A stretch of DNA of 46,456 nt from an uncultured Candidatus Saccharibacteria bacterium (lineage in GTDB: Bacteria; Patescibacteriota; Minisyncoccia; UBA10092), in contig CAZBVM010000002.1 of assembly GCA_964495505.1 (NCBI GenBank), forward strand, positions 1 through 46,456, read 5' to 3'. Below, piece by piece: positions 12,392-44,073 of this stretch; the first letter of the stretch is position 1, and each line of letters starts with the position of its first letter. A model generated the notes under the pieces. It searched no databases. It saw only the letters and a list, made by a program, of their open reading frames with translations, and was not told where the DNA came from. Made by a program: the position numbers and the translations under genes.

Positions 12392-13739
12392 TTAATTTAA
12401 ATATTGCCGCGAGGCCTACAACTGCCAATAAAATATAAAACGGGTAAATCGGCAGGGCGTAGCGCGGAATAGCGTGAATAGCGCTATAAGCCAAATTAAA
12501 ATATAAAACAATCAAAATAAGCCATCCCGACGCCGCCCAATTTCTCGCGATTTTAACAGCTCCGCATATCGCCAAAAAAAGAAATAGAAACCAGATGCCG
12601 CGGATTCCGATAATAATGCCTGTTTTTTTCCAATCGGGAATTTCCGGATGCCGGCCCTCGGCAAACATCGGATGAATTTCAAGCGTATTCCGCCATTGGT
12701 TATCCCGGGGAAGAATCGGACTATTGAAGCTGATAAAGTCCAAAAGCGATATGGCAATATATTTGTGGGGCTCTTTTAATATGGTTTTAAGCGCTCCGGC
12801 AGTTAACTGTTGGTCAATTTCAATATCATTTTTCCCGGATTTAACGAGTTCATTAACGGTTTTGTCGGTGACGACTACATTTCGGTAATCATCATAACTC
12901 GCTTTAATCCCAAGTTTTTCAGAAAAATAATACCCGAATAGTCGGCCGATAAAATGGCCGGCGTAATCCGAATAGAACCTTTCCATCCGCTCTACGCGCG
13001 AAGCCAGGCCTCCGCCAATCCGAGGGGCAATAGTAATTTCACCGTAACGGTTATATAGATACCAAGGCGATAAGGCGGCAAGAAAAGCGAGCAAAAGAAT
13101 GGCGGCTTTTAAAGTTCCTTTTTTAAATAGAGCCCGCTGATAATAAATAAACAAGACATTAAGAGCGGCCAATACAATGAAAAATTGCACAATGCTTTTT
13201 GTCATAGCCGAGAGCGCCAGAAAAATGCCCGCGGAGAAAAGCCATAAATTACTATTTTTTAAAGATGCCTGATAAAAAGTAAAAACGGAAACGATAAGCA
13301 AAAAAGTGAAAAGAATTTCGGTCGCAGCATTCCCCGCTTCTATGGCCAAACCGGGAAAGAGAGCGACGGCTATGGTCGACCAAAAAGCCAGATTATTTTT
13401 TATTAATCCGCGTTTATCCGCGACTAATCCGCATAAATCAGCGATTAAGTAAATGAAAACAACCAAAAAAGCAAAAAGGAAAATCTGGATTATTCTCACC
13501 GTATCGTAATTATGGCCGAAAACTTTATAAATACCCGCCAAAAATAGCGGGTAGAATGGCTCAACGCCGGCATCGCGTCCATAATAAGTAAATCCACTCC
13601 CGCCTAAAATATTCTGAGCAACTTGGTCATAAAAACTCTGATCTGATGTTGCCGGCTGGCCGAATATTTTTTGATTCCAAAAAAATCCCGACGCCAAGGC
13701 AATCAGAAATATAAAAATAATTATTTTTTTATTACTCAT
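12366..13739 (-). CDS. GT-C fold glycosyltransferase, ArnT/PMT (GT39/GT83)-like
   Basis: 457 aa and polytopic. The first-loop motif is DQSFYDQVAQNILGG (DxxxY...A type). Confidence 0.7.
   Translation of the reverse strand: MSNKKIIIFIFLIALASGFFWNQKIFGQPATSDQSFYDQVAQNILGGSGFTYYGRDAGVEPFYPLFLAGIYKVFGHNYDTVRIIQIFLFAFLVVFIYLIADLCGLVADKRGLIKNNLAFWSTIAVALFPGLAIEAGNAATEILFTFLLIVSVFTFYQASLKNSNLWLFSAGIFLALSAMTKSIVQFFIVLAALNVLFIYYQRALFKKGTLKAAILLLAFLAALSPWYLYNRYGEITIAPRIGGGLASRVERMERFYSDYAGHFIGRLFGYYFSEKLGIKASYDDYRNVVVTDKTVNELVKSGKNDIEIDQQLTAGALKTILKEPHKYIAISLLDFISFNSPILPRDNQWRNTLEIHPMFAEGRHPEIPDWKKTGIIIGIRGIWFLFLFLAICGAVKIARNWAASGWLILIVLYFNLAYSAIHAIPRYALPIYPFYILLAVVGLAAIFKLNEGILHSR
13408..13443. repeat. 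Solo array of ATCCGC-type ~10-11-nt units, the same family as the flanks of the GxxExxY module. It is in frame inside the GT-C gene.
   Basis: CCGCGTTTATCCGCGACTAATCCGCATAAATCAGCG closely matches the reverse complement of 23481-23515. It is translated as ADLCGLVADKRG. Confidence 0.7.
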
Positions 13740-13741
13740 CT

Positions 13742-14755
13742 TTAATATTTTCTAAATAACTTAAGAGTCAGGCCATAAAAAATACCGACCCAAAAACTTA
13801 TCGCGAATAAGGGCAATAAAATCAACGAAATCGCAAAATCCTTAATATTTTCCGCCAGCCATAAAGACGCCGATATCCACATTAAAATTACTATAGCTAA
13901 AAAATAAATGAAATAAATCGGTTTTATTAACATAAAAATTATAATCGGAAAAGCCATGATTGACGGGATAATGAAGAGCCAAAAATATTTTTTCTTAGGA
14001 TTCAAATAATAATCAACGAATCTCGGCCCCCTTTTAAAAATATGCCGGAAAACACTCTTAAAAGAATCCCGCGACTGATAAATCACTTTTATATCTGGGT
14101 GTTTGAGTAGTGGCTTTTTTAGAGCAATATTTCTTAATAATTTTATGTCATCAGAAATCCACTTGCCTTTATTTTCCGGTTGGGATGAAATAAAGAGACG
14201 CTTATCGCAAAAAAGAACCGTTGTGCCTTTGGGGATATCGTCATAATTGTTCGGGGTAATATAAACGGGTTTGAAATCTTCTCTAAAATATTCTCCATAC
14301 AGTTTTTTCCTGAAAAGAAACCCGAAGCGATCAAAAATGCTTTTGTTTTGATTCATAACCGGATTGCCGACGAGCGGTTGATAATTTATTTTTTTTAAAT
14401 TATTTAAAATTTCACTGTCGGCAACGCATCTGGAATCAATAAACAACAGATTTTCGTATCTGGCGTTTTTGGCGCCGGTTTCCCTTGCTATAATCCAACC
14501 CTTATTTTTCTCCAAATTAATCAATCGAATTTCGGGCGTTGAGATTTTAGATTTGAGATTTGCCTGCCCACCATTCGCCTGAGACGAAGCCGATAGCGGG
14601 CGGGAGATTTGAGATTTTGTATTGTCCGTCGAGCCATCGTTAACTATAATTATCTCGTAATCTTCTTTGGGATAATTCTGACTGACTAAAGAATCGAGGC
14701 AATCATTTATTAACTTTTCCTCGTTATAAACCGGAATAATTATTGAGATTTTCAT
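13742..14755 (-). CDS. GT2-family glycosyltransferase with C-terminal transmembrane segments and an internal repeat-derived insertion
   Basis: MKISIIIPVYNEE...IIIVNDGSTDNT is a GT-A N-terminus. The C-terminus is hydrophobic. Confidence 0.8.
   Translation of the reverse strand: MKISIIIPVYNEEKLINDCLDSLVSQNYPKEDYEIIIVNDGSTDNTKSQISRPLSASSQANGGQANLKSKISTPEIRLINLEKNKGWIIARETGAKNARYENLLFIDSRCVADSEILNNLKKINYQPLVGNPVMNQNKSIFDRFGFLFRKKLYGEYFREDFKPVYITPNNYDDIPKGTTVLFCDKRLFISSQPENKGKWISDDIKLLRNIALKKPLLKHPDIKVIYQSRDSFKSVFRHIFKRGPRFVDYYLNPKKKYFWLFIIPSIMAFPIIIFMLIKPIYFIYFLAIVILMWISASLWLAENIKDFAISLILLPLFAISFWVGIFYGLTLKLFRKY
14541..14617. repeat. Heptamer tandem tracts (GAGATTT x3 and x2) flanking a 42-nt GC-rich core, in frame within the GT2 gene
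   Basis: GAGATTT TAGATTT GAGATTT at 14541-14561. The GC-rich core is at 14562-14603. GAGATTT GAGATTT is at 14604-14617. Together they encode KSQISRPLSASSQANGGQANLKSKIS between DGSTDNT and IRLINLEKNKG. Confidence 0.75.
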
Positions 14756-14793
14756 TCAATTGAGCTTACTATAAACACCGCGAAATTTCAATA

Positions 14794-14822
14794 TTGTCAA
14801 GCTAAACTTATTAAGTTATAAT
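14794..14822 (+). promoter_or_regulatory. Near-consensus sigma70-type promoter for the aminotransferase gene
   Basis: TTGTCA (14794-14799), 17-nt spacer, TATAAT (14817-14822). The ATG is at 14840 and no SD is visible, so the leader is very short. Confidence 0.5.
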
Positions 14823-14839
14823 AATATAACTAATTTATT

Positions 14840-15931: not shown

Positions 15932-16304
15932 AATCCTTGTCATTTTTAAAAGGGCCGTTTTTAAGTTCAATCATCTCCGCGTCTTCCATTATATGGAAGC
16001 CGTGGCCACCGGCTAAAGCGATAAATAGCTCGCCGGCTTTTAGATAAATATATTTGAAAAATTTTTTGTCCGGTCCGTAAAGATCTAGACGAACTCTGCC
16101 TTTGCGCACGATAAAGCATTCCTGCAGATGATTAGTGATTCTTTTTCGAGGAAGATGCCTGTGGGCTTTAAGATACGAGCCGCGAGGATATTTGAGGGTA
16201 AGCAGCTCCAGAGATTGTTTGCCGTCGGTATGGGGAACGCTACCGCTTGGCATCGCGGAAAGCCGCAAACCTATAAGAACGTTTTTATAAAATATTTTTT
16301 CCAT
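15915..16304 (-). CDS. Small cupin-fold protein (WbuC-like)
   Basis: 129 aa. SYLKAHRH...ECFIVRKGRVRLDLY...GGHGFH reads as a single cupin barrel. It starts 1 nt after the gmd stop. Confidence 0.5.
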   Translation of the reverse strand: MEKIFYKNVLIGLRLSAMPSGSVPHTDGKQSLELLTLKYPRGSYLKAHRHLPRKRITNHLQECFIVRKGRVRLDLYGPDKKFFKYIYLKAGELFIALAGGHGFHIMEDAEMIELKNGPFKNDKDFIKTV

Positions 16305-16305
16305 T

Positions 16306-17394: not shown

Positions 17395-17435
17395 AATTCC
17401 AAAATAGTACTACGAAACTCGCCTGAATGTCTACT

Positions 17436-19482: not shown

Positions 19483-19490
19483 TTCACTAT

Positions 19491-22291: not shown

Positions 22292-24514
22292 TTAGTCAAA
22301 ATTTGCCGCGTAAACAACTATATTGTTATTTTCAAAGACCGAATTAAAATATTTTTTGCCAATCCGCCAATTTGGATTTTTATTTTTATCCCATACCAGA
22401 TAGTCAACCCGATACTTTTTTAGTTCTTCCAAAAAATTATTTTTTTGAAGCTCTTGCGCGCGCAGAATAACTCTTTGAATCGCTTCTTTAGGCAAATAAA
22501 TTTCCGGCTCCGTTTTTAATCCCAAAAAGCGCCTTAGTTTATTGCCCTGAACGGCATGGCCGTAGGCATCCACGTATCTGTTGCCATAAACCGAACGGGT
22601 ATTTTCAATGATAAAATCTTTATTAAAGTATTCTCCGCCCCAGAGGGGCGAGATCTCGCCTCCGGCGGAAAAAAAACTATTCAAAATAAATCTGTCTAAA
22701 ACCTCATCGTCGGAAATAAAAAATGAATTAGCATTGCGATGATAAAAAACGTTGTTTGCCGTATAAACCGGTATCAAACCAGATAGCGAATTATTGGCAT
22801 AAACTACGGAATCATTTTTTGTGTTTTTATTGAGCCAATCAAAAATCGGAGCGTAATTTTGGATATAAATTCCTCCTTCGCCGATGGCAAATGATTGGTT
22901 TGAGTAATTGCGCAAACCGCTGAAAATTACCAAAAAAACTATCAAAATAATTGCCGCGGTTATTATTCTTTTTCGGTTGGTAAAACTCAACAGATAAACA
23001 GCTGAAAAAACCAAAAAAAACATCGCGCCCATATCGTAATGGCTTGAAAATTCAAAATTTTTTCCGGTTATCAAATGCTGATTGACGGCAATAATGCTTG
23101 CCAAAATGCCGGAAACAAAGAACATGGTTTTAACATTCCATTTAATAATTTTTCGCCATAAAAACCAGCCGAAAATTGCAAAACCCAATATGCTCCAAAA
23201 TATTATTCGCAGTCCCGACGGAAAACGGGAATAAATCATGCTGATTCGCGTTAACGTTTCAGTATAATAAGGCAACCGCGCCGAAAGATAATTTAGATAA
23301 AAATAAGGAATGGCCAATACCAGTCCGCCGGCGGCAATCGCGGCAATTTTTAGGGCAAATTCTCTATTTTCCCAAAAATAAGCCGCAATTAAAATTCCAA
23401 AAAATATCAGGTAAAACGTCCAATAATAAGGATAGATATAAAAAAGCAACCCAAAATTTAAAATATTCAACAATACAAGCGCAGATTTATGCGGATTTAG
23501 CGCGGATTCACGCAGAATTTTTGAATCAATTCGCGCCGATTTCAACTGATCATTCTCTGTTTCCAAGCGAGCTATATCAAAAATCTTTCTTTCAATCTGT
23601 AATTTATTGCCAAAATTTATCAACAATCCTAATTTATATGGAGATTTTTTTAAATAAGTCCAGAATTGCCTTCTGCTTTCATTCTTTAGGAATGGCAAAC
23701 TTTTTAACTCAATAAGAATGCGATCATCCACGATAATATCAAAAATCTGTGTTCCAACTTTTTGATCATAGTAAAAAATATCTTGCCTTTTTTGATTTTC
23801 AACCTTAAGCCCAATATTGATAAATTCAGCAATGAGCGCCCTTTCAATCAATTTTTCATTAAAGCCGCCTCGAAAATCTTTCCAAACTTTATAGCAAGCA
23901 CCGCGTATCTTATAAGTTATGTCTCCGTAAAGAAGTTCGGTTTTTTCTCCGCGTTGATCCGCTTCTATCCGCGTTGATCCGCGCTTGTCAATTAAAAGCC
24001 AGAGGAAAATAAACTGTGAAAGCCAGAATATGAAATTAAACTGCGGACTTACCGGCCGAATGAAGGTTATTAAGTACAATCCGAAAAACAAAAAGGAAGA
24101 AGAAATGATTGACCAAAATCGAGATTTTGTAATTAAATAAAGTCCGAGATAGGTTAAGAAAAAAGCAACTGCGGGAAGTAAAAAATTATAAATTAGATGG
24201 GCCGTATTTATATTTAAATTTAATAATTTTATCGGCTGTGCTAAAATATATTCCGCTAAAAATAATTGCTGGGGCGAGCCATCCTTATGTTCAAATAAAT
24301 AAGCGTTGCTTAAAAAAATATGGCCGTCTATGACGTCTTTAATCCGGGCATAATAAAACATTTCATCATCCACAAACTGAGGAAAAATACCGCGGAAATC
24401 AGACCCGAGCTTAACCTGAAAATAAAAAAAAGGCAAAACCATTAAAAAGCCCAAAATGACCGCTAAAATTACCGCGCTCCAGTGATATTTTACCGACCTC
24501 AAAATTCTTATCAT
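22292..24514 (-). CDS. GT-C-like polytopic membrane protein carrying an in-frame GxxExxY-domain insertion
   Basis: The track start 24532 is TTG, so the ATG at 24514 (MIRILRS...) is preferred. The first-loop motif is VDDEMFYYARIKDV. The C-terminal domain is paralogous to 3909..5801. The reading frame is uninterrupted through the insertion. Confidence 0.7.
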   Translation of the reverse strand: MIRILRSVKYHWSAVILAVILGFLMVLPFFYFQVKLGSDFRGIFPQFVDDEMFYYARIKDVIDGHIFLSNAYLFEHKDGSPQQLFLAEYILAQPIKLLNLNINTAHLIYNFLLPAVAFFLTYLGLYLITKSRFWSIISSSFLFFGLYLITFIRPVSPQFNFIFWLSQFIFLWLLIDKRGSTRIEADQRGEKTELLYGDITYKIRGACYKVWKDFRGGFNEKLIERALIAEFINIGLKVENQKRQDIFYYDQKVGTQIFDIIVDDRILIELKSLPFLKNESRRQFWTYLKKSPYKLGLLINFGNKLQIERKIFDIARLETENDQLKSARIDSKILRESALNPHKSALVLLNILNFGLLFYIYPYYWTFYLIFFGILIAAYFWENREFALKIAAIAAGGLVLAIPYFYLNYLSARLPYYTETLTRISMIYSRFPSGLRIIFWSILGFAIFGWFLWRKIIKWNVKTMFFVSGILASIIAVNQHLITGKNFEFSSHYDMGAMFFLVFSAVYLLSFTNRKRIITAAIILIVFLVIFSGLRNYSNQSFAIGEGGIYIQNYAPIFDWLNKNTKNDSVVYANNSLSGLIPVYTANNVFYHRNANSFFISDDEVLDRFILNSFFSAGGEISPLWGGEYFNKDFIIENTRSVYGNRYVDAYGHAVQGNKLRRFLGLKTEPEIYLPKEAIQRVILRAQELQKNNFLEELKKYRVDYLVWDKNKNPNWRIGKKYFNSVFENNNIVVYAANFD
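23480..23990 (-). mobile_element. About 510-bp in-frame module encoding a GxxExxY-family PD-(D/E)XK nuclease-fold domain, flanked by inverted arrays of GCGGATNNNN decamers
   Basis: The domain reads LLYGDITYKIRGACYKVWKDFRGGFNEKLIERAL...FDIIVDDRILIELKSL...RRQFWTYLKKSPYKLGLLINFG. The left flank on the + strand is GCAGATTTAT GCGGATTTAGC GCGGATTCAC GCAG (23481-23515). The right flank is CCGCGTTGATCCGC ttctat CCGCGTTGATCCGCGC (23949-23985), which is the inverted orientation. Confidence 0.65.
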
Positions 24515-24515
24515 G

Positions 24516-25373
24516 TTATGATTTTTTGGCAATTATGAAAAAATCATCGCGAAAATCAACCGGCAAGCTTATACTTCCCAAGCGTGTCCCCGCCAATAAA
24601 TCCGCCGCCCATCGCCAAATAAAAATATTCTGCCATCTGGCCAACATATTAAATAAATATTGCAAAGCAAATTTTTTCCTGATTTTGCCCGCATAAACTA
24701 CCTCAAAACCAATTTTGGAAAGCAAAAAGCAAAGATTGTTTTGGTTGAAATAAATGACATGTTCGGGCGGAATAAACTTGTACCAGCGTTTCCCTAAAAT
24801 TTTCGCGGCAAAACTGCCGGTATCTATGGTATTGATAGCAACCACTCCCCCCGGTTTAAGTATTTTATAAATCACTCTAAAATCAAAATCCGGATTTATC
24901 AGATGCTCTAAAACATCCCATAAAGTTACCGCATCAAAAAATTCCGGTTTAAAATCGGATTTTTCAAGCGTGCCGGTGACGACCTTCAACCCTCTTCTCC
25001 TGGCAATTTCCGCGGCATATTCCGAAATTTCAATTCCGCTTCCTTCAAAACCCGCCTTTTCTGCCAATTGCAAAAAATATCCGGTCGCCGCGCCAATATC
25101 CAATAATTTATTGCCACTGGAAAAATCCTTGATTTTTTCCAGATAAGTAACAAGCGTTTTGGACATTGCCAATTTATCATCGTCATAGTTGACATAACCA
25201 AAACCTTTTTTAGCGCCGAAAAAATAATCGGCAGAATATATTTCGGAGAAATTTTCCGGTAATGGAAAAATAAAAACCAAACCGCATTTTTTGCAGCGCC
25301 AAAGATCAAAATTATTTTTTTTCGTAAAAAAATCCGCGGTCTGGCTGTTACAAACAATGCAGAATTGATTCAT
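24516..25373 (-). CDS. Class I SAM-dependent methyltransferase with an N-terminal Cys4 zinc-ribbon
   Basis: CIVCNS...CKKCG, then motif I LLDIGAATGYFL, then LWDVLEHLINP. Confidence 0.8.
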   Translation of the reverse strand: MNQFCIVCNSQTADFFTKKNNFDLWRCKKCGLVFIFPLPENFSEIYSADYFFGAKKGFGYVNYDDDKLAMSKTLVTYLEKIKDFSSGNKLLDIGAATGYFLQLAEKAGFEGSGIEISEYAAEIARRRGLKVVTGTLEKSDFKPEFFDAVTLWDVLEHLINPDFDFRVIYKILKPGGVVAINTIDTGSFAAKILGKRWYKFIPPEHVIYFNQNNLCFLLSKIGFEVVYAGKIRKKFALQYLFNMLARWQNIFIWRWAADLLAGTRLGSISLPVDFRDDFFIIAKKS

Positions 25374-29852: not shown

Positions 29853-31718
29853 ATGTGCGCAATCAATGGGTTTAATTTTAAAAACCAGGACTTAATCCTG
29901 CGAATGAATCAGGCCAATGCCCATCGGGGCCCGGATGGCACCGGTATTTTCACTGACGATTCCGTTTCCTTGGGTCATAATCGCTTGAGCATCATCGATT
30001 TATCGGATCGCGCATCACAGCCAATGAAAAGCGCAGACGAAACGCTGGTTATTATATTTAACGGAGAAATTTATAATTTTGAACGGCTTAAGAAAGAACT
30101 GGTAAACGAATATCCTTTTAAAACAAATAGTGATACCGAGGTCATATTGGCGGCATATCAAAAATGGGGACATAATGCGGTAAAAAAATTGAACGGTATT
30201 TTTGCTTTTGCGATTTGGGATTGTAAAAAGAAAGAGCTTTTTATTGCCCGGGACCATCTTGGTATCAAACCTTTCTACTATTGCATCAATGGCAAACAAT
30301 TTATTTTTTCTTCCGAAATAAAAGCGATATTGGAACATCCCATTCCTCGAAAATTTAATACCGAGGCGTTTAATCATTACTTGCGAATTCTTTACGTGCC
30401 GGAACCGCTTACCATGTTCGATGGCATCTATAAATTGCCTCCCGCGAGTTTCGGCGTTGTAAAAGACGGCATTTTGACAATACAAAAATTCTGGCAGGTG
30501 GAGCCGGGAAATTATTTGACAGAACCCCAGGCATACATAGAAAGAGAGGTTTTTAATAAAATATCGGCGTCCGTCGAACAGCAGTTGATTTCTGACAGAC
30601 CACTCGGAATATATTTATCGGGAGGCATCGATTCAAGCACCATCCTTCACTGCGTAGCCCAAAAGTATCGGAAAATTAACACATTTTCCGTGGGATTTAA
30701 TCTCCGAAACGAAAAAGTGGAAGAGAAATTCAATACAGATCTTTATCTGGCAAGAAAAACCGCAATGCATTACGGCGCCAGCCATCACGAAGTGATGTTA
30801 TCAACTGAAGACGTGCCCGAACTATTCACAAAAGCGATACGGCATATGGACGAACCGATTTCAAATCCAACGGCTCTCGCAATGATAAAACTGGCGGCTT
30901 TCGCAAAAGACAGGGTTACGGTGGCGTTGGGGGGCGATGGCGGAGATGAACTTTTCGGAGGTTATGAAAGGTATCGTCTCAGTTTAATTGCAAGCTATTA
31001 TCAAAAGCTCCCCCGCGCGCTTCGAATTCTGTTTTCGTGGAATGATAAATTAAGAAAATTGAACACCGCCACCGGCATAGATAGATTTACACTTTTTATG
31101 TTTCAAAAGAACGGCATTTTAGAAAGAACAATACATCCTGAATGGCTGAATAAGACAATCTCTGAGGAATTTTTCAATAAGAAATATTTTATTCCCGGGC
31201 GCAATCGGCGTTTTGAGGAAATATTTATGAATACCGACAGGCAAAGCTGGCTTGTCGATCAGTCGCTGATGTTAACAGATAAAATGTCTATGGCATCCGG
31301 ACTTGAGGTGCGGGTGCCATTATTAGATAAAGATCTGGTTGAACTAGCCGCGCGAATTCCTCTTAAATACAAAGTAAGCCCTTTCAACACAAAAATTATC
31401 TTAAAATCAGCGGTAAAGGGGCGAATACCATCGTTTCTTTTGGACCAGCCCAAAAGAGGCTGGTTTGCGCCCGGCGCCAAATGGCTGCGATATCCGTCTG
31501 TTTATACATTCGCCCAGAACGTTCTTTCGCCCGAATATTATTCAGAAACATCGCCGATTTTTTCATGGAAGGAAATTAAGAAAATCTTAGATGACCATTG
31601 CGCCGGACGCCAATATAATTTAGTAATATTATGGGCGCTAATGACATTCCAACTATGGGCGCGCGAATTTAATATAAGCGGCAGCGCAAAACATTTCCCC
31701 GATGATGCGAGGAATTAA
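29853..31718 (+). CDS. Asparagine synthase (glutamine-hydrolysing)-family amidotransferase
   Basis: The MCAINGF N-terminus gives a Cys2 nucleophile. The PP-loop is YLSGGIDSSTIL. 621 aa. Confidence 0.85.
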   Translation: MCAINGFNFKNQDLILRMNQANAHRGPDGTGIFTDDSVSLGHNRLSIIDLSDRASQPMKSADETLVIIFNGEIYNFERLKKELVNEYPFKTNSDTEVILAAYQKWGHNAVKKLNGIFAFAIWDCKKKELFIARDHLGIKPFYYCINGKQFIFSSEIKAILEHPIPRKFNTEAFNHYLRILYVPEPLTMFDGIYKLPPASFGVVKDGILTIQKFWQVEPGNYLTEPQAYIEREVFNKISASVEQQLISDRPLGIYLSGGIDSSTILHCVAQKYRKINTFSVGFNLRNEKVEEKFNTDLYLARKTAMHYGASHHEVMLSTEDVPELFTKAIRHMDEPISNPTALAMIKLAAFAKDRVTVALGGDGGDELFGGYERYRLSLIASYYQKLPRALRILFSWNDKLRKLNTATGIDRFTLFMFQKNGILERTIHPEWLNKTISEEFFNKKYFIPGRNRRFEEIFMNTDRQSWLVDQSLMLTDKMSMASGLEVRVPLLDKDLVELAARIPLKYKVSPFNTKIILKSAVKGRIPSFLLDQPKRGWFAPGAKWLRYPSVYTFAQNVLSPEYYSETSPIFSWKEIKKILDDHCAGRQYNLVILWALMTFQLWAREFNISGSAKHFPDDARN

Positions 31719-32741
31719 GTTGTCCAGATTGTGACTATAAACTGCAATTTCCCGCAATTGATTTTGCAGATTTTCGTTTTGATATAATTTTTTGTAAAAA
31801 ATATTATTTAATTTCTCCGTTAAATCGGTCTCATTCTCCGCTTTAAAAATCAAATTCGACGCGATTTCTCTCGGGAAAACCGTCAAAAAAGCGGTATTTG
31901 AGGTCAAAGGAATCATACCCGAAGCCATTGCTTCTAAAACAACTTTGTCCAAGCCGCCGGAGGGAACAGTGTTAACGAGAATTTCAGCATCGGCGAAATA
32001 TCCCGGCATTTTATTGTAAGAAACAGCGCCGGAAAATTCTACGTTATCCTCGATTCCGAGTTCAATAACCATTTTTTTTAGAAAATCTGAATATTTAAGG
32101 TGATGCTCTTGAATCACGCCCCCGATGATTTTTAATTTCAAGTTGTAACCTGATTTTATTAAATCCGCCACAGCTCGGATAATCAAATGGTGCCCTTTAG
32201 ATGGTGTAATCCTTCCTACCGACAAAATCGTAATTTTGTCTTGTATTTGGTATTTAGTATTTGGTATTTGGAATTTATTGATATCAATACCGTGGCCAGT
32301 AACGATCCGTTTTGGTGTATTAATTCTCATTGCCGCTTCGTGCGCAGTAAAAACTTTCTTGCAAAATAAAACCGCCAAGCGGAGCTTCCAATGAACTGAA
32401 ACGCCCGTGTACCACATAAAAATTGGTTTTCTGTAAAAAAACGCGACTGGCGCCGCTAAAATTACATATTTCGGAACCATGTGAACCAAAATAGCATCGG
32501 ATTTGCCGATAATTTTAAATAATCCAGCGTAAAAACCAAAAAGTTTTCCGAAAAAACCCACTCCTTTTTCCTTACCCATGCTCACAACCTTCATGTTCGG
32601 CTCTGTCGGTTCGGAACGCTTTTCAAGCGCTAAAATATAAACGTTTTCAAGTCGTTCCGCCAATTTGTTCCACCAATCAATAAAAACGCCGAGATTGGAG
32701 TCATTAATGTCATATTTTTGGGTTATAACCAAAAGTTTCAT
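31653..32741 (-). CDS. GT4-family glycosyltransferase
   Basis: ILSVGRITPSKG and GGLDKVVLEAMASGMIPLTS. Its 3' end overlaps the convergent asnB-like gene by 66 nt. Confidence 0.8.
   Translation of the reverse strand: MKLLVITQKYDINDSNLGVFIDWWNKLAERLENVYILALEKRSEPTEPNMKVVSMGKEKGVGFFGKLFGFYAGLFKIIGKSDAILVHMVPKYVILAAPVAFFYRKPIFMWYTGVSVHWKLRLAVLFCKKVFTAHEAAMRINTPKRIVTGHGIDINKFQIPNTKYQIQDKITILSVGRITPSKGHHLIIRAVADLIKSGYNLKLKIIGGVIQEHHLKYSDFLKKMVIELGIEDNVEFSGAVSYNKMPGYFADAEILVNTVPSGGLDKVVLEAMASGMIPLTSNTAFLTVFPREIASNLIFKAENETDLTEKLNNIFYKKLYQNENLQNQLREIAVYSHNLDNLIPRIIGEMFCAAAYIKFARP
32243..32277. repeat. Imperfect heptanucleotide tandem repeat (GTATTTG-type, 5 units) inside the GT4 interdomain linker
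   Basis: GTATTTG GTATTTA GTATTTG GTATTTG GAATTTA, translated as IPNTKYQIQ. It is immediately preceded by an 8-bp-stem palindrome GACAAAAT-CGTA-ATTTTGTC (32221-32240). Confidence 0.75.
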
Positions 32742-35260: not shown

Positions 35261-35932
35261 TCAATCAAAAAATCTATATTTTAACAAAGTCCAAATACTT
35301 ATAATACCATCCCTGAACCCCAATTTTTTGCCCTGGAGTTTTGTTCTCGGGAAATATTGCGTTTGGATCTGAATAATTTTTTCTTTCCGCTTCAGAAGCT
35401 TGGCGGTAATTTCTTCGCATATTTGGAAACGATTGCTTTTTAAATTAAGATTTTGCCAAAGTTCCCGAACCATCACTTTGTAGCCGTTATTAACATCTTT
35501 AATATTCCCGCCATATAGCAGATTTGTTATTAAACTGACGGTTTTACCACCCCACCAGTAAATACTGCGTAAATTATTGGAATCCCTAAAGCCAAACACG
35601 GCGCGAGTTTTATTCTCTTCAATGGGCTCTATCAACCGTAAAATATTTTGGGGATCGGTTTCTAAATCGGCATCCTGAATAACAATGATATCGCCCTTTG
35701 CTCTTGTTAATCCAAGTTTTATTGCCGCGCCTTTTCCTAAATTATTTTGATGAGTAATTAATTTTATCTTGCCTTCGTCGTGCAACTTAATTAAAATATT
35801 TTTCGAACCGTCGGTAGAACCATCATCGACGGCAATAATTTCTTTATCAATATCAAGATCTTCAACCTTTTTTATAATTTCTTCAACGGTTTTTACTTCG
35901 TTAAAAACCGGAATTATAATTGATATTTTCAT
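35261..35932 (-). CDS. GT2 glycosyltransferase (Dpm1-like, soluble)
   Basis: MKISIIIPVFNEVKTV...AVDDGSTDGS...IQDADLE. Confidence 0.8.
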   Translation of the reverse strand: MKISIIIPVFNEVKTVEEIIKKVEDLDIDKEIIAVDDGSTDGSKNILIKLHDEGKIKLITHQNNLGKGAAIKLGLTRAKGDIIVIQDADLETDPQNILRLIEPIEENKTRAVFGFRDSNNLRSIYWWGGKTVSLITNLLYGGNIKDVNNGYKVMVRELWQNLNLKSNRFQICEEITAKLLKRKEKIIQIQTQYFPRTKLQGKKLGFRDGIISIWTLLKYRFFD

Positions 35933-37058
35933 AAATTTCCATTATCTTTTGAGTGATTATCGGCCAATCCTTTTGTTTAATATCTTCAAAATTTTTATCG
36001 TGCATTTTCTGCTTTAGATTTTCATCGCCAATTGATTTTATCACCGCCTTAGCCAGCGCCTCGCTATTTTTTTCTTCAACCAACAATCCGTTTTCTCCTT
36101 CTCTTACCAAATAAGAATTACCTCCAACTTTGGTGGCAATAATCGGCAGGCCGGCAGCCATTGCTTCCATTATTGAAGTGGGATTGCCTTCGCGATCGCC
36201 TCCGGTGCTAACAGACGCTAAAACAAAAATATCCGCCACTTTTAGATACTCTACAACTTTATCATGATTTTGACGGCCTAAAAAGTAAACCCCATCAACA
36301 CTTTTAGCCTGTTTTTCTAATTCAATTCTATCGGGCCCATCGCCTATTATAATCAGAGTAGCTCCGCTAAACTTTTCTTTAACCGTTTTAAAGGCATCAA
36401 TCAAATATTTAAATCCTTTCGCCGATCTTAAAACCCCGATGGAAATGATAATCGGCTTAGAATATTGATTACTCAGAGCTATAATTTTATTGCTGTCAGT
36501 CTTTTTAAATTCGGACAAATAAATTCCGCTCGAAATTATAGCCAGTTTATTTTCCGGAACACCGATGCCTTTTAAATCATTAGCGATTTCTTCGCTAACA
36601 CAAATTATTTTGTTGATATTTTTAAAATATCTTGCATTCTCGTGTTTTAATAGTCGTTTGTTCAAGCCGGCGTGAATGGTGAGTACCGCTGGAATTTTTA
36701 ATTTTTTGGAAAGTTTTCCGCCAAAATACGCTTCAACAAAATCACCGTGTAGATGAATGATGTCATATGGATTTTTCGCGTGATATTTTTTAACTTGCCG
36801 CGCAGCCCAAAAATTAAACCAAAAACGCCGCGCCTTGCTGTAAAGCGGCAAAAACTGCAGCGGCATTTTATAAACGCTGAACTCTTTGAAGTCCGATTTC
36901 AAAAATTCCCCGAAGTCGGACTTCATAGTTCCGCCGTAACCAATAAAAATTTCTACTTGATGGCCAAGTTTAATTTGCTCCTGCGAAAGAATTAACCCAT
37001 GCCTTTCCATACCTCCTACATGTGGTGGGAAGTACTCTATAATCCTTGCGATTTTCAT
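35901..37058 (-). CDS. GT4-family glycosyltransferase carrying an in-frame palindromic repeat element
   Basis: EGNPTSIMEAMAAGLPIIAT. The N-domain contains MKSDFGEFLKSDFKE, which derives from the repeat. Confidence 0.85.
   Translation of the reverse strand: MKIARIIEYFPPHVGGMERHGLILSQEQIKLGHQVEIFIGYGGTMKSDFGEFLKSDFKEFSVYKMPLQFLPLYSKARRFWFNFWAARQVKKYHAKNPYDIIHLHGDFVEAYFGGKLSKKLKIPAVLTIHAGLNKRLLKHENARYFKNINKIICVSEEIANDLKGIGVPENKLAIISSGIYLSEFKKTDSNKIIALSNQYSKPIIISIGVLRSAKGFKYLIDAFKTVKEKFSGATLIIIGDGPDRIELEKQAKSVDGVYFLGRQNHDKVVEYLKVADIFVLASVSTGGDREGNPTSIMEAMAAGLPIIATKVGGNSYLVREGENGLLVEEKNSEALAKAVIKSIGDENLKQKMHDKNFEDIKQKDWPIITQKIMEIYENINYNSGF
36888..36924. repeat. Hairpin element: GAAGTCCGATTTC - AAAAATTCCCC - GAAGTCGGACTTC (13-bp stem including one G:U pair)
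   Basis: Read directly. Same family as 42604-42639 and 43372-43444. Confidence 0.85.
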
Positions 37059-38182
37059 TTTAGTTCTAAAAATAAATTAGCGAATTTTTTAATGCCATCA
37101 TTCCACTCATAATTTTTATTGACGTGTTCACGGCCGGCTTTGCCAAATTTTTCTCTTAATTCTTTATTTTCCATTAATTCTTTAATTTTTTCTGCCAGTA
37201 CTTCCGGATTATGTGGTTCAACTAAAAATCCGTTCTCGCCGTTTTTGACTAAATCCGGAATACCGCCGACACGCGTTGCTACCACCGGCTTTTCCATAGC
37301 CATCGCCTCCATAATAGAACGACCGAATCCCTCATGCCAACTCGGATAAACAAAAATATCAATTTCTGACAGCGCTTCCGGCACTTTGCCATACGGCACA
37401 AACCCCCGCCATTCTATTCTATCGCCAATATTCAATTCTTCAGCTAATTTTTTCAATTTCATTTCCAGTGGCCCAGTTCCAAAAATTAAACAATTAAACT
37501 TTAAACTCCGTGATTTTAAAATCGCAATTGCCTTAAACAAATCTTCCAATCCTTTTCCATCTACCAATCTTCCAATATAACCCAAACTTATCCCCACCTT
37601 ATCCCCAAAACTATTGATGTCGGACATCAATAATGGGTTAAAGAGAGAAAGATCGACGCGAAGAGAGACAAGGCGGATTTTTGATTCGGAGACATCCTGC
37701 TCCCGAACTTGATTGAATATTGTATGGCTTATAACGCGGATTTTTGCCGCGCGCTTCATTGCGAAGCGGCCGATCCATTTAAGCGGCCGGCTTTTCAGAT
37801 TTTTCTTATTTCCGGGTTTTCTGAAAATCTCTCCCTGGACTTCAATGACTGTCGGTTTTCCGGTAAGAAATTTCAATAAAGTAACGGCAATGCCACCGCC
37901 GGCGACTTCAGAAGCATCAAAAACATCAATGCCGTATTTTAATTTCAAATAAAATCCAAGCTTTACTGCGCCGGCAATAAATCCGAGATAACCCAAAAAA
38001 TTAGGAATAAGATAAACGCGAATATTATTTTCTTTGACACGATGGAAAAATAAATCCGGCGACTGCGCGATTACGAAAAGATTATAAAAATAAGCGGCCA
38101 TTGAGCGCCAAGTTTTCATATCCTGCTCATTTGAAAAAACATCTTTCGGATATTTATGTTTTCCTATAAAACAAACGTTCAT
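37055..38182 (-). CDS. GT4-family glycosyltransferase
   Basis: EGFGRSIMEAMAMEKPVVAT and LGYIGRLVDGKG. Confidence 0.85.
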   Translation of the reverse strand: MNVCFIGKHKYPKDVFSNEQDMKTWRSMAAYFYNLFVIAQSPDLFFHRVKENNIRVYLIPNFLGYLGFIAGAVKLGFYLKLKYGIDVFDASEVAGGGIAVTLLKFLTGKPTVIEVQGEIFRKPGNKKNLKSRPLKWIGRFAMKRAAKIRVISHTIFNQVREQDVSESKIRLVSLRVDLSLFNPLLMSDINSFGDKVGISLGYIGRLVDGKGLEDLFKAIAILKSRSLKFNCLIFGTGPLEMKLKKLAEELNIGDRIEWRGFVPYGKVPEALSEIDIFVYPSWHEGFGRSIMEAMAMEKPVVATRVGGIPDLVKNGENGFLVEPHNPEVLAEKIKELMENKELREKFGKAGREHVNKNYEWNDGIKKFANLFLELK

Positions 38183-40576: not shown

Positions 40577-40592
40577 TTAGAATATATTATAT

Positions 40593-40600
40593 TGTATAAT
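40593..40600 (+). promoter_or_regulatory. Extended -10 element (TGTATAAT) in the divergent intergenic region
   Basis: TGnTATAAT match about 60 nt upstream of the ATG at 40660. No good -35. Confidence 0.3.
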
Positions 40601-40659
40601 AAAATTGCTGTTGCGTCAATTTGATATTTTGGCCTTATTGAGCCAAATATTTCATAAAA

Positions 40660-41826
40660 ATGGCTAAAAAAATATTATTTTTAATAACCAAATCCGAAAT
40701 GGGCGGCGCTCAGCGCTTTCTATTTGAACTTGTAACGCATTTAGACGCTAAAAAGTACGATATTATAGTTGCTGCCGGTGGTCCGCCGGCTGGCGGAGAA
40801 CTATTTGAAAAACTGGCCCAAAAGAGCGTAAAAACGGTTAAAATTAGGAACTTTTCAAATAGTTTCGGTATAAAAAATATTTTCGCTTTCGCGGAAATCT
40901 TTGGGTTGATAAGAAAATTCAAACCCGACGTTCTTTATCTTTTAAGCTCGGAAGCCGGCTTTTCTGGTTCTATTGCCGGAAATATTTACCGTTTCCTTTT
41001 TTGGCGTACCAATCCAAAAATAATCTATCGAATAGGCGGTTGGGCCTTTAAAGAGCCAAGAAATATTTTCATAAAAAAAATATATTTGTGGGCCGAAAAA
41101 ATATCGGCGCGATTTAAAGATACAATCGTTACTAATTCTGAATTTGACAGGCATTTAGGAATAAAAAATAACATCGTCAAATCGGAAAAAATAATGACTA
41201 TTTATAACGGCATGAATTTAAATGAAATAAAGTTTCTTCCCAAAGAAGAGGCTAAAAAATTCATCATATCAAAACTACTAAATACTAACTATCAGCTACC
41301 AACTACTATTCTGATTGGCACCATTGCCAATCTTTACAAAAACTAAGGGTTGGATTTTTTAATTCTTGCGGCCGCAAGAAATAAGGTAATAGAAAAAAAT
41401 TGTAATTTTATAATTATCGGAGAGGGTCCCGAGAGAAAAAAACTGGAAAATCTTATAAAAAAACATGAGCTCGAAAATAATGTTATTTTAATCGGCGCCA
41501 TTCCCGACGTGCGCCGATACTTAAAGGCCTTTGACTTATTCGTTTTGCCGTCGGTAAAAGAAGGCCAACCCTGGGCAATTTTAGAAGCTATGGCCGCTGA
41601 GGTGCCGATTGTTGCAACAAATATCGCCGGCATTCCGGAAACGGTAGAAAATGAAAAATCCGGCCTTTTGGTTGAACCAGCGGATTTTGACGCGCTATCC
41701 AAAGCAATAGAAAAAATGTTAATTCATCCCTCTCTTGCCAAAAAATGCTCTGAAAAAGCGCTAATCGCAGTTAAAGAAAAATTCAATATCGCCGAAATGA
41801 TTAAAAAAAATGAAGAGTTATTTTAA
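40660..41826 (+). pseudogene. GT4 glycosyltransferase interrupted by a single in-frame TAA (41344-41346)
   Basis: ORFs 40660-41346 and 41350-41826 are in the same frame. The junction reads IGTIANLYKN*GLDFLILAAAR, where GT4 enzymes normally have ...K-G-hD-hLI. The C-terminal half carries EGQPWAILEAMAAEVPIVAT. Confidence 0.7.
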
Positions 41827-41862
41827 TTTATACTATCCAAACGATCGTTTTTATAGTATAAA
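41827..41862. terminator. Candidate bidirectional terminator hairpin between convergent genes
   Basis: TTTATACTAT (41827-41836) pairs with ATAGTATAAA (41853-41862). There is an inner palindrome AAACGATCGTTT. The stem is AT-rich. Confidence 0.4.
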
Positions 41863-41877
41863 TTTAAACTTTTTAAA

Positions 41878-44073
41878 TCATAGACCTAGATTTTTTATAA
41901 AATTTTCTTCGGCTTTGCTTTGCGGGTTATAATCCAGCTCTAAGGCCTTTTTGATTTCACTGGCCCCCTTATTTTTCTGATTATCAGCGATATACGCCAA
42001 TCCTAAATACCAATGGCTTAAACCGATAGACGGCTCGGCATTAACCGCTTGAGTCATATAAGATACGGCTGATTTGGTGTCGCTTAAAAGCAAAGAATTT
42101 TTAGTTAAATAGAATAACGTCTCTTGCCGATTTGGACTTAATTCCAGAGATTTTTTGCCATAGGCCTCGGCTTGGGCCAATATTGCCTGGTCTCTCCCCC
42201 TTTCGCCTAGAATCATATATATCCGCGCCATGTCCGTGTAGGAGGCGGCGTTTTTTGGATGGGCAGTAAGAGCTTTATCGGCCGCTTCAAGCGCAAAATT
42301 AATTATCTCTTCTGGATTCGGCAATTGAACATTTTTCTGTAAAGCGCCGGCAACGGAAGCGATTAAATCAAATTGGTATTCCGCTTTATACGGCGTAAAA
42401 TGATTTAATGATTTTTTAAACAGAGTAACTCCCTGCACCGTATCTTTTGGAAAAGTCCGCAAAGCGTCGGCGTCGGCTAAATTAGCGCGCCAGATTGAGT
42501 AATTTACATATAATAATACGAATGTGATTAAAACTATTGCTAATGATGCCAATTGCGAATAAACAGTATTAGCAATTCGCGGTATTCGCATGTTTCCAAT
42601 ATTGAAATCCGACTTCAAAAATCCCCGAAGTCGGACTTCAATATTGTGCGAAGCGATAAACGCTAAAAACAAAAACAACCCAAACAAGGAACCGAAACTA
42701 TCAAAAGAGAAAAAAACCGCTCCAAAATAAGCAACGAAAGCGCCTGTTAATACAAGCGATAAAACTTTTGCTTCCATAATTGGAATTATGGAAGTGTTTG
42801 TTTTGATATTTTTAAAAAGTTTAAATAAATAAAACGCAACGGAAAGCCAAATTAAAATATAAGCCAAGCTGCCGACAATGCCCGTTTCGGTCAAAATTTC
42901 TAAGAAGGCATTATGCGGCTTGTCAAACCAGGTCTCGCCAAATCCTCCGCCGCCGAATTTTAAAAATCTTGGGTCGTAATATTTGTTGAAAATATAATTA
43001 AAGTTTTCCGGACCAACGCCTAAAACCGTCCACCAACCGGCGGATTGAAAACCCTTAAGCGATATCTGCCATGCCAAAAGACGCGTTTTGACAGTGTAAT
43101 TGGAAAAAGAAATTTCAGTAAACTTTCTTAATACGCCGTTCCTTAAAAAATCGGCGCTGCGAAACTGCCAGAAACCGGCTGCGGCAATTAAGATTGCCAG
43201 AAAACATGCGGATAATATAATTCTTGTCCGTTTAGTAAATATGTTGGTTAAAATTAAAACCAGTAACAAAAATAAAATGCCTATAAAAAAACCTAAAATC
43301 GCGCCTCGAACCTGCCCTAAAAGAATAACAAAAAGGATAAAAATAGAGCTTGCGCCAAAAAACCAACGCCTGAAGTCCGAATTTGGCATTTGAAGTCCGA
43401 CTTCTGGGGATCTCGAAGTCGGACTTCGGGAAAAGTCGGACTTCGGAAGTATAAATTGATAAAGTCCCCAGAAAAAATGAAAAATTAAGTACGGTGCGAC
43501 AAATGTCGGATTATTAAAAATAGTGGAGCCAAACGATAACCCCCACGCGGAATTTTGATAAAAAGCAGTCGCGGCAACAACAAGAGCGACAAAAAAAGAA
43601 AAATTTAGATAATTATGCCAGTTTAATAATTTATTGCCAATGTCGCTCATCGCTAATCCCTTTGATTTATTGGTAATTTGCATCATTCGCAACTGTTTAT
43701 CTCTATTCGCATAATTAAGTGAGCTGGCAAGCACTAAAAACCAAGCGAAAAAATGGAGCTCGGCGAATAATCCTGTCATTCTCGGTCCGATTCCCCAGAA
43801 ACTTCTTGAAAAATCAATTCCTAAAAGCGCGGAAATAAAAGAAATAGCGGTAAATAACACCAACGCCACTACAAGCCAATTTCTAAAATTAGGTTTTAGA
43901 AATTTCAATATCAACCAGGCGGCGAAAACAATCTCAACCAACACCTGAAATAAAATAAATTTCGGCGTTGAAAACGGAAAAAGCGCCTTTGGCCAGAAAG
44001 CCAACGGTGTCAGCAAAACAGCGTAAAGCCCATATTTTACAATTTTAGATAAATATAATTCGGTTTTAGACAT
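41878..44073 (-). CDS. O-antigen ligase/polymerase-like (Wzy_C) membrane protein with C-terminal TPR repeats
   Basis: KPHNAFLEILTETGIVGSLAYILIW is a Wzy_C motif. The C-terminal ~200 aa is TPR-like (AASYTDMARIYMILGE..., LGLAYIADNQKNKGASEIKKALELD). Confidence 0.85.
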   Translation of the reverse strand: MSKTELYLSKIVKYGLYAVLLTPLAFWPKALFPFSTPKFILFQVLVEIVFAAWLILKFLKPNFRNWLVVALVLFTAISFISALLGIDFSRSFWGIGPRMTGLFAELHFFAWFLVLASSLNYANRDKQLRMMQITNKSKGLAMSDIGNKLLNWHNYLNFSFFVALVVAATAFYQNSAWGLSFGSTIFNNPTFVAPYLIFHFFWGLYQFILPKSDFSRSPTSRSPEVGLQMPNSDFRRWFFGASSIFILFVILLGQVRGAILGFFIGILFLLLVLILTNIFTKRTRIILSACFLAILIAAAGFWQFRSADFLRNGVLRKFTEISFSNYTVKTRLLAWQISLKGFQSAGWWTVLGVGPENFNYIFNKYYDPRFLKFGGGGFGETWFDKPHNAFLEILTETGIVGSLAYILIWLSVAFYLFKLFKNIKTNTSIIPIMEAKVLSLVLTGAFVAYFGAVFFSFDSFGSLFGLFLFLAFIASHNIEVRLRGFLKSDFNIGNMRIPRIANTVYSQLASLAIVLITFVLLYVNYSIWRANLADADALRTFPKDTVQGVTLFKKSLNHFTPYKAEYQFDLIASVAGALQKNVQLPNPEEIINFALEAADKALTAHPKNAASYTDMARIYMILGERGRDQAILAQAEAYGKKSLELSPNRQETLFYLTKNSLLLSDTKSAVSYMTQAVNAEPSIGLSHWYLGLAYIADNQKNKGASEIKKALELDYNPQSKAEENFIKNLGL
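42604..42639. repeat. Hairpin element: GAAATCCGACTTC - AAAAATCCCC - GAAGTCGGACTTC
   Basis: Read directly, with 12/13 stem pairs. Translated as IEVRLRGFLKSDFNI. Confidence 0.85.
43372..43444. repeat. Cluster of four copies or part-copies of the 13-nt palindrome GAAGTCSGACTTC
   Basis: A part-copy GAAGTCCGAATTT lies at 43372-43384. GAAGTCCGACTTC (43392-43404), TGGGGATCTC, GAAGTCGGACTTC (43415-43427) form a perfect 13-bp stem. AAGTCGGACTTC follows at 43433-43444. Together they encode KSDFSRSPTSRSPEVGLQMPNSDF. Confidence 0.85.

Follow-up and report, generated by a model that had tools for sequence, protein, structure and literature searches.

We analysed a 46,456-nt stretch of contig CAZBVM010000002.1 from an uncultured Candidatus Saccharibacteria bacterium (hereafter the window, meaning the whole stretch), focusing on short repeats that lie within its glycosylation genes and keep the reading frame. 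The results revealed at least 12 repeat sites across seven genes, every one of them in an uninterrupted open reading frame (ORF). These sites probably represent several unrelated selfish or slippage-prone repeat families, poor in stop codons, that selection has filtered to in-frame positions in tolerant loops. A preliminary description of this DNA had reported at least seven sites in six genes and treated them as a single phenomenon with one origin. All the places it named do carry in-frame repeats, the count was understated (sites at 22634–22669, 37587–37632, 42568–42591 and 42771–42794 come on top of those named), and the idea of one origin fails, as the families are not one phenomenon but the products of at least three unrelated mechanisms. 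The sites also lie where it had placed them, namely after DGSTDNT in a family 2 glycosyltransferase (GT2), in the interdomain linker of a family 4 glycosyltransferase (GT4), and in loops between transmembrane helices.

Comparison with related genes indicates that the repeats are DNA-level elements and not ancestral peptides, because the same 13-nt palindrome (family A) is read in three frames, as KSDF, EVGL/EVRL or SPTS/SRTS. Most orthologues have empty sites, and different families occupy the same loops: in Wzy_C loops, a family-A, family-B (nuclease cassette), family-C (periodic array) or heptamer insert, or none, is found at the same position in different orthologues. These alignments identify hypervariable loops of the host proteins as apparent sinks for inserts. 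Since different families share the same loops and their sequences are free of stops, a simple selection filter fits. Selfish DNA filtered for frame preservation had been one of the earlier suggestions, and it is the best reading.

The window (~40% GC) holds almost all of its genes, and most of the features, on the minus strand. Pfam searches revealed a glycan-assembly locus with several GT2 and GT4 genes, PMT_2, Wzy_C/TPR, AsnB, sugar dehydratases and methyltransferases, and the nearest orthologues of its proteins were hypothetical ones encoded by metagenome-assembled genomes (MAGs) of Candidatus Azambacteria, Parcubacteria and other Patescibacteria (59–76% identity). The window thus reads as groundwater Patescibacteria DNA of a Parcubacteria/Azambacteria-like kind. 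Tandem Repeats Finder (TRF) returned 12 rows with a score ≥41 in the window versus 2.3 in shuffles. The window sequence was present in four groundwater metagenome runs (Logan), whose contigs ran with 0 differences across the solo arm, the pair at 36888, the heptamers and the junctions of the cassette, which disposes of the earlier worry about assembly chimeras at these junctions. At clusters of the 13-mer, unitigs broke and depth rose 3–10×, as expected because this DNA is multi-copy. Raised depth at 23040–23086 was considered as a further repeat and rejected, as it reflects a conserved protein motif. The repeat sites are as follows; L and P labels here and below denote loci from other genomes or metagenomes and related proteins, respectively.

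13402..13446, minus strand: family-B solo arm with four GCNGAT units spaced 10–11 nt; PMT_2 gene 12366–13739; peptide LIADLCGLVADKRGLI
14539..14617, minus strand: heptamer AAATCTC, two blocks round a 42-nt core; GT2 gene 13742–14755, after DGSTDNT; peptide TKSQISRPLSASSQANGGQANLKSKISTPE
22634..22669, minus strand: palindromic insert, core GGCGAGATCTCGCC; gene 22292–24532; peptide SAGGEISPLWGGE
23475..23988, minus strand: complete family-B cassette, 514 nt, in frame; multi-pass membrane protein gene 22292–24532
32240..32276, minus strand: array of 4.9 copies of a CAAATAC-like heptamer; linker between the domains of GT4 gene 31653–32741; peptide KFQIPNTKYQIQDK
36888..36924, no strand assigned: family-A pair (13-mer, 11-nt spacer, 13-mer); GT4 gene 35901–37058; peptide MKSDFGEFLKSDFKEF
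37587..37632, minus strand: variant REP (repetitive extragenic palindromic) element, palindrome TATTGATGTCSGACATCAATA plus tail GGGGATAAGGTGGGGATAAG; interdomain linker of GT4 gene 37055–38182; peptide LLMSDINSFGDKVGIS
42568..42591, minus strand: old family-C array, periodic and of GCGAAT type; peptide MRIPRIAN
42604..42639, no strand assigned: family-A pair; Wzy_C/TPR gene 41878–44073; peptide EVRLRGFLKSDF
42771..42794, no strand assigned: palindrome CTTCCATAATTCCAATTATGGAAG; 11-aa insert NTSIIPIMEAK in the Wzy_C gene
43372..43444, no strand assigned: nested family-A element, inner pair 43392/43415 and outer degenerate pair 43372/43432; peptide KSDFSRSPTSRSPEVGLQMPNSDF
43600..43734, minus strand: two TGCGAAT motifs, both decayed, in loop 2 of Wzy_C; peptide YANRDKQLRMMQITNK; low confidence

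Family A palindromes and neighbouring transposases

The unit of family A is the 13-nt palindrome GAAGTCSGACTTC, mostly paired into 36–37-nt hairpins. At ≤2 mismatches it had nine matches in the window compared to 0.61 expected, a count reached by none of 100 shuffles, and none of its six frames holds a stop codon. It occurs at 36888/36912, 42604/42627 and 43372/43392/43415/43432, with a variant at 37616; the pairs, of the AAAAATCCCC type, are ~10 nt apart, and a variant form of the palindrome is GATGTCSGACATC. The pair at 36888..36924 yielded a hairpin z-score of −4.7. The loop of GT4 35901–37058 in which it sits holds a family-A element in the window and in L124 (a locus with 16 matches to the 13-mer), a decayed one in L125 and an entire family-B cassette in L120. 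The pair at 42604..42639 (z-score −7.1) was common only to P0122 and absent from 14 other orthologues. The element at 43372..43444, likewise shared only with P0122, folds into one hairpin nested inside another (z-score −6.5), with depth raised 3–5×. In run X2, a depth-2 contig joined 43434 back to 43389 (window 43389–43434), which may represent copy-number variation of 13-mer units in this nested element.

The variant element at 37587..37632 (palindrome also given as TATTGATGTCGGACATCAATA, tail as GGGGATAAG) showed ~10× the depth of its flanks and numerous alternative flanks in all four runs, and is the window's most abundant element in the community. Its tail also adjoins a Y1_Tnp gene in L125. 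In a syntenic Azambacteria locus there are two genes for Y1_Tnp, both accompanied by hairpin repeats of their own, and one of these repeats has the GGGGATAAGNTGGGGATAAG tail in common with the window element. In the same syntenic locus (L127, 8480–9420), a different hairpin, ATGTTGGAA-accgagc-TTCCAACAT, borders a Y1_Tnp gene on either side; this arrangement looks like a second type of REPtron, the combination of REP/REPIN repeats and a REP-associated tyrosine transposase (RAYT).

We scanned one genome per species for the palindrome and found 13-mer pairs in at least 119 loci, nearly all from Patescibacteria of many classes and including a closed chromosome, with a few in Ignavibacterium, Parabacteroides, Omnitrophota and Chloroflexota MAGs. 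GAAGTCSGACTTC was identical in Saccharibacteria, many Parcubacteria lineages, and Ignavibacterium and Parabacteroides MAGs. Spacers and flanks were variable, C-type followed by G-type order predominated, the motif GGGGAT recurred in spacers and tails, and the 13-mer was often the centre of a longer palindrome (mean extension 1.75 nt vs 0.33 by chance). The counts for pairs, host ORFs and transposases given here were drawn from loci among the matches listed, and a pair was scored as inside an ORF when the frame was open for ≥40 codons on each side. An intragenic-to-intergenic comparison, envisaged genome-wide in the preliminary description, was made for family A among these loci: 92 of 128 pairs (72%) lay inside ORFs compared to 70.5% of random positions, and family A shows no avoidance of coding DNA, intergenic copies being found as well. 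Each pair left 4.9 of six frames open versus 3.6 for random 36-mers, and intragenic pairs were read as xKSDF (48), EV(G/R)L (25) or S(P/R)TS (18). The 91 host ORFs included Mur ligases (9), MiaA (4), UvrB (4), TopA (3) and class I aminoacyl-tRNA synthetases (3), further hosts being UvrA/C/D, TsaD and DinB, and only 2 of 91 were GT4 genes. In a Bacteroidota MAG (Parabacteroides; L042 2300–2400, L017 and L057), the 13-mer pairs were intergenic and lay between copies of the motif GACGACCGTCTTC.

Transposase homologues were present in 10 of the 119 loci (each ≤8 kb), frequently directly beside a pair (as in L100, L061, L119 and L008) and including the Ignavibacterium locus. In L105, two identical pairs (768 and 1536) stand on either side of a 228-aa ORF (832–1515) that matched Y1_Tnp (E = 2 × 10−10) and, under the cut-off, NF047646, the NCBI model for RAYTs (E = 5.5 × 10−11). 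The HUH histidines and the catalytic tyrosine (YIHxNP) were invariant among the RAYT-like proteins. Three RAYT-like genes carry in-frame family-A inserts of their own in one loop, encoding SPEVGLRKFPKSDF, LAKSDFAKL and QKSDFRYLKSDF (L096 428–1111, L100 4792–5493 and L071 3110–3667, respectively), and the L105 copy has no insert there. A literature search on the 13-mer found no description, only unrelated short hairpin RNA papers, and none of the papers listed by a further search mentioned RAYT or REPIN. The 13-mer resembles MGI adapters over 8 nt; an origin from sequencing adapters was rejected, as the 13-mer occurs in both Illumina and nanopore assemblies of many projects, in conserved ORFs and beside transposase genes.

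Anatomy and relatives of the family B cassette

Family B is built from periodic arrays of GCGGAT units. GCGGATNNNNGCGGAT at ≤2 mismatches had 11 matches in the window compared to 4.35 expected, and 0 of 100 shuffles reached this count. Genuine array copies lie at 13402–13446, 23475–23516 and 23947–23988, and the arrays at 13407 and 23477 are 80% complementary over 40 nt. The bare heptamer ATCCGCG was not enriched in the window (12 vs 9.4), and only phased arrays were. Two of the three copies enclose a GxxExxY domain: the cassette comprises a left arm (23947–23988), the domain (23588–23923) and a right arm (23475–23516), with the arms mutually inverted and the outer ends ACAAGCGC...GCGCTTGT. 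The arrays at 23481 and 23949 and the GxxExxY module had previously been listed as separate items; both are present, and the arrays are the inverted ends of the module. An example of a host/arm junction peptide is ...LLIDKRGSTRIEADQRGEK....

The module matched PF13366 (E = 2 × 10−25, 89.7 bits vs cut-off 22) and TIGR04256 (97 bits vs cut-off 35), and the catalytic E...D...ExK residues (E47, D86, E96 and K98) were invariant in the domain; the nuclease of the window cassette appears to be intact. In the AlphaFold 2 model the core reached a predicted local distance difference test score (pLDDT) of 86–97 and the arm-encoded ends were of low confidence; the ends are thus predicted to be flexible linkers round a well-folded core, compatible with a tolerated domain insertion. 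Foldseek against the PDB returned PD-(D/E)XK nucleases as generic and weak matches, and a PDB sequence search with the cassette gave only spurious protein-A matches. In the predicted single-strand fold the arms pair and close off the entire cassette (z-score −2.66). All of the ~119 orthologues of gene 22292–24532 (540–627 aa) are free of PF13366, leaving the cassette as a clean ~170-aa insert in one loop. ATTG stands at both cassette ends in the window, and no consistent duplication was seen in L120, L128 or L129. The solo arm at 13402–13446, which gives its protein 9 aa more than homologues of 41% identity have, was spanned by contigs of three runs.

A metagenome scan yielded four cassette relatives, of which one was free-standing, two nearly identical ones were in frame in LepA, and the fourth (L120, 76% identical) was in frame in an orthologue of GT4 35901–37058, in the same loop as the family-A pair of the window. 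The L120–L123 cassettes have the same terminal inverted arm layout as that of the window. A profile-free exhaustive search returned 4091 relatives, and flanks were printed for the best 50 of these. Among the best 50 of 4091, cassettes were mostly internal to proteins of 250–907 aa, and the hosts were LepA, RecG, GatB, LeuRS, RtcB, AsnB, Wzy_C, GT2, GT4 and type IV prepilin leaders. Arm-encoded peptides border all listed cassettes, with TQxDAD or RINADK on the N-side and xxRxSA repeats on the C-side. The GT2 cassettes (P0260 and P0262) follow DDGSTDGT, in the same loop as the heptamer insert of the window, and one GT4 host is an orthologue of window gene 31653–32741. LepA cassettes always lie between PVRMxY and Y(I/V)LNLIDTPGH, and RecG cassettes between DEQHRFGV and PHLLSMTATPIPRT, each site being occupied across many 50%-identity clusters. 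The LepA site, in the G domain, recurred in eight cases (L122/L123 2350–3020; P0257, P0261, P0266, P0269, P0273, P0278 and P0288), and in eight clusters (P0268–P0301) the RecG cassette occupied one exact site between helicase motifs II and III. In P0249, P0251, P0253, P0254, P0258, P0270, P0271 and P0276, the cassette is fused in frame to the N-terminal leader of a type IV prepilin and stops immediately ahead of the cleavage motif GFTL(V/L)ELL, a position where prepilin peptidase would remove the insert.

The nearest cassettes were often found in different host genes (LepA–GatB 0.77, LeuRS–LepA 0.70, window–GT4 0.76–0.82), and the cassette therefore moves between genes. There are cargo-less copies too: the termini of the L120 cassette, TAGAAGC...GCTTCTA, recur on an 86-nt element in L129, and L128 carries two ~90-nt copies, differing by 3 nt, in two loops of one gene. 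All intragenic family-B copies were in frame with open arms, and no out-of-frame copy was seen among those examined. [quoted passage not shown] From sequence evidence we tentatively suggest that the GxxExxY PD-(D/E)XK protein might be the mobility nuclease of a previously unrecognised element class, defined by inverted GCNGAT arrays, an open ORF, in-frame insertion and in-frame MITEs, an assignment that we hold to be possible and somewhat short of probable.

Heptamers, family C and other features of the window

TRF assigned 3.4 copies (score 41) to the tract at 14539–14562 and 4.9 copies (score 54) to that at 32243–32276. The former is weak on its own, because the window has 12 TRF rows ≥41 compared to 2.3 in shuffles; it is supported by a second block (14604–14617, the first being 14539–14561) and by the same peptide in orthologue loops. 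Residues 4–115 of the GT2 encoded by 13742–14755 align with positions 1–94 of the Pfam profile, which implies an insert; no orthologue of this gene was found in the syntenic loci. The heptamer peptide at 32240..32276 is kept in the 69%-identical orthologue L126 and is shorter in P0241, and L129 has a related (AAATTCC)×4 array. Heptamer arrays encoding KFQIPNSK-, LKSQISNLK- and YKLQITNYK-type peptides, GCGAAT-type peptides (TNTRIHTNDTN and (I/L)RMPRIAN, in many orthologues) and GC-rich palindromes (GGSQPKADQPLAG) occupy the same loops in orthologues. The PDB alignment of GT4 stopped short of the N-terminal loop. The insert at 22634..22669 was missing from 9 of 11 aligned orthologues, and P0003 and P0005 have a longer relative there (SAKGGSQPKADQPLAGAKSSGG). 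The palindrome at 42771..42794 (z-score −7.6) was common only to P0127. The loop at 43600..43734 resembles that of P0125 (NANNMNQYANDANREYK), other orthologues having family-A, -B or -C inserts or nothing.

Several further features were observed. A 26-nt unit repeated 1.9 times at 28082–28132, at the 3′ end of GT4 gene 28069–29211, has the top TRF score of the window (67). A perfect 18-nt palindrome, TTCTTGCGGCCGCAAGAA, lies at 41363–41380, directly downstream of gene 40660–41346. The sole sizeable intergenic gap (44074–44264) contains a 76-nt imperfect palindrome (44110–44185, centre AGCGATCGCT) and is followed by gene 44265–46406 (713 aa), which has no Pfam match and a GC content of 50% vs ~39% elsewhere. 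Scanning the window with Rfam (gathering thresholds) and for tRNAs gave no matches. In L124, a syntenic Parcubacteria locus, a free-standing 87-aa GIY-YIG ORF (13846–14109) lies between glycosyltransferase genes and is another nuclease-type selfish gene in the same type of locus.

Mechanism, alternatives and known systems

The repeats and their frames, the empty sites, the loop hot spots, the association with transposases, the anatomy of cassette and MITEs and the movement between host genes are shown by the sequences; we infer both the enzymology of movement and the translation of the inserted peptides. In family A, usually two GAAGTCSGACTTC copies 8–12 nt apart form a hairpin that behaves as a REP/REPIN element, and a RAYT-like Y1 HUH transposase would move it in trans in the form of single-stranded hairpin DNA. 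In family B, inverted arms of three to four GCNGAT units, one helical turn apart, surround an open-ended nuclease frame whose product may bind the periodic arms and drive movement, and the family also has cargo-less MITE-like derivatives and solo arms. The repeat sequences are almost without stop codons in any frame, such that insertions which keep the frame (and, in family B, the orientation) and fall in a surface loop or linker that tolerates them would add a short flexible peptide or a domain and persist, and all other insertions would be purged by selection. Glycosylation genes are loop-rich and not a special target, and the local emphasis on glycans is a sampling effect of the window.

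Several observations weigh against this interpretation. The lengths of family-A pairs (34–38 nt) are mostly not divisible by 3, and the inserted unit of family A is therefore undefined. The window contains no transposase or RAYT-like gene. NF047646 was the best and sole NCBIfam match of the transposases, at 25–51 bits vs a cut-off of 80, and no GTAG or CGTC tag was constant in the 13-mer or its flanks. For a REP it is unusual that the 13-mer stays exactly the same from Saccharibacteria to Ignavibacteria and Parabacteroides, and this could indicate a host function. No target-site duplication was definable for family A or B, and the literature found demonstrates no transposase or homing activity of GxxExxY. 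As to the polymorphism raised in the preliminary description, the contigs of the four runs, in which rare variants stay hidden, revealed none in insertion or length. Some inserts, such as the heptamer of GT4 31653 and MRIPRIAN, are old, being shared with orthologues, and their present-day mobility is unproven.

The alternative that deserves most attention is that the palindromes are nucleic-acid signals kept by the host, such as mRNA hairpins that adjust translation or decay, RNase III sites or DNA-uptake-type sequences. The identity of the 13-mer across distant lineages, its very stable hairpins (z-scores −4.7 to −7.6) and its place at the centre of longer palindromes would all suit such a role. 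However, the copies lie in clusters and within one another instead of at an even spacing, their positions differ between orthologues, flanks and spacers vary freely, no Rfam family matched, and the tight association with a Y1 transposase explains the conservation as that of an enzyme recognition site, which leaves host signals unlikely. The GxxExxY cassette might instead be removed from the mRNA, via the arm stem, or from the protein, leaving the host gene functionally uninterrupted, with the frame of importance solely for expression of the nuclease. The predicted pairing of the arms, the intein-like niche and the harm that a 150–170-aa insert might do to highly conserved hosts (the LepA G domain, RecG and LeuRS) argue for removal, but Pfam and NCBIfam found only PF13366 in the insert, with no Hint or intein domain, and Rfam found no intron family. 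RNA splicing would need no in-frame co-orientation, yet all intragenic copies seen are in frame, as are the cargo-less MITE copies and solo arms, and the predicted flexible ends round a folded core suit a retained domain insertion; we regard removal as distinctly unlikely.

It also seems improbable, to a slightly greater degree, that the inserts were co-opted as loop diversifiers of surface-glycan genes that vary glycosyltransferase or polymerase specificity, as the preliminary description had proposed. All window sites do lie in GT2, GT4, PMT_2 and Wzy_C genes and a membrane protein gene of one locus, the orthologues differ chiefly in these loops, and the KSDF frame is over-used (48 of 91). 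Elsewhere, however, the hosts are mainly housekeeping genes: family A sits mostly in Mur ligases, MiaA, UvrB, TopA and aminoacyl-tRNA synthetases with GT4 at only 2 of 91, and the cassette in LepA, RecG, GatB, LeuRS and RtcB. RAYT-like genes themselves carry inserts, all three frames are used, and the window is nearly all glycosylation locus, hence a local bias by sampling. Short repeats in glycosyltransferase genes have a precedent in the phase-variable lipooligosaccharide and capsule genes of some host-associated bacteria, and the 7-nt units, not a multiple of 3 and inside glycosyltransferase ORFs, could by one-unit slippage toggle the GT2 and GT4 genes. We consider such switches just as improbable as loop diversifiers, given that the units are imperfect (88% matches) and few (3.4–4.9 copies), that the peptide is identical in a 69%-identical orthologue, that the contigs of the four runs hold no length variant and that the same heptamers occur in loops of non-glycosyltransferase orthologue genes. 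The least credible explanation, to which we give almost no weight, is that the repeats are assembly chimeras or ancestral peptides that merely resemble repeats. Unitigs do break at 13-mer clusters and some inserts are common to orthologues, but four independent assemblies agree across the junctions, the elements recur in at least 119 loci from many projects and in a closed chromosome, most orthologues have empty sites, and one DNA motif is read in three frames.

If the interpretation as selfish or slippage-prone repeats filtered by selection is correct, the ultra-small, streamlined genomes of Patescibacteria tolerate mobile repeats in essential genes at the density found elsewhere. It would also change how lineage-specific protein insertions and hypothetical low-complexity peptides of Patescibacteria are read, with a bearing on gene calling, orthology and structure prediction. 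REP/RAYT biology would be extended to a large uncultured radiation with an unusual cross-phylum palindrome, the GxxExxY family would gain a concrete, testable role with a defined substrate (GCNGAT arrays), and natural insertion-accepting sites would be offered in LepA, RecG, Mur ligases and glycosyltransferases. The literature search found no description of these elements in Patescibacteria.

REP/REPIN and RAYT systems were reportedly described by Nunvar in 2010, Bertels and Rainey in 2011 and Ton-Hoang in 2012. Family A shares their architecture, consisting of short palindromes in many copies, inverted pairs forming hairpins, a Y1 HUH transposase gene flanked by repeats, and scattered non-autonomous copies. 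In contrast to these systems, it lacks a GTAG/CGTC tag, a perfect 13-nt palindrome makes up each of its arms, the 13-mer is common across phyla, ~72% of copies are intragenic and in frame instead of extragenic, and its transposases score under the curated RAYT cut-off. REPs inside genes are known, many of them in repair genes (Di Nocera 2013, PMC3733652). Rickettsia palindromic elements (RPEs) are in-frame palindromes in genes (Ogata et al. 2000, as cited in PMC3733652). The earlier comparison with RPEs stands as an analogy, since family A and the other palindromes also lie in frame in probably functional genes of a host-dependent bacterium with a reduced genome and encode surface-exposed peptides; as to kinship, the nearest tested relatives of the 13-mers are REP/RAYT elements. 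RPEs are 100–150 bp, presumably unrelated in sequence, confined to Rickettsia and without a known transposase, whereas the elements here are 36–90 nt, fall into several families and, in the case of family A, come with a candidate transposase; size and taxon set it apart from RPEs.

Family B resembles bacterial MITEs and their parents in its terminal inverted repeats, its ORF-bearing form and its short cargo-less derivatives with the same termini. Unlike those of MITE parents, its ORF encodes a 120-aa PD-(D/E)XK GxxExxY protein and no known transposase, its arms are periodic 10-nt arrays that the ORF reads through on both sides, and no consistent target-site duplication was found. As with inteins and free-standing homing-endonuclease genes, housekeeping proteins that are conserved contain a nuclease in frame, and the same site recurs as its place. 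However, family B has neither a Hint domain nor splicing residues, and its insert presumably stays in the product. Its junctions consist of peptides encoded by the arms, it is also found in variable loops of proteins that are not conserved, and cassette kinship does not follow the host gene. The heptamers of the window, tandem and inside ORFs, are like the cyanobacterial STRR (short tandemly repeated repetitive) heptamers reportedly described by Mazel in 1990, which are said to be tandem 7-nt units dispersed through genomes, including inside ORFs, but they differ in sequence and phylum. Taken together, these comparisons indicate that family A may be a variant of REP/RPE biology and that the cassette with the nuclease may represent a mobile element of a new kind.

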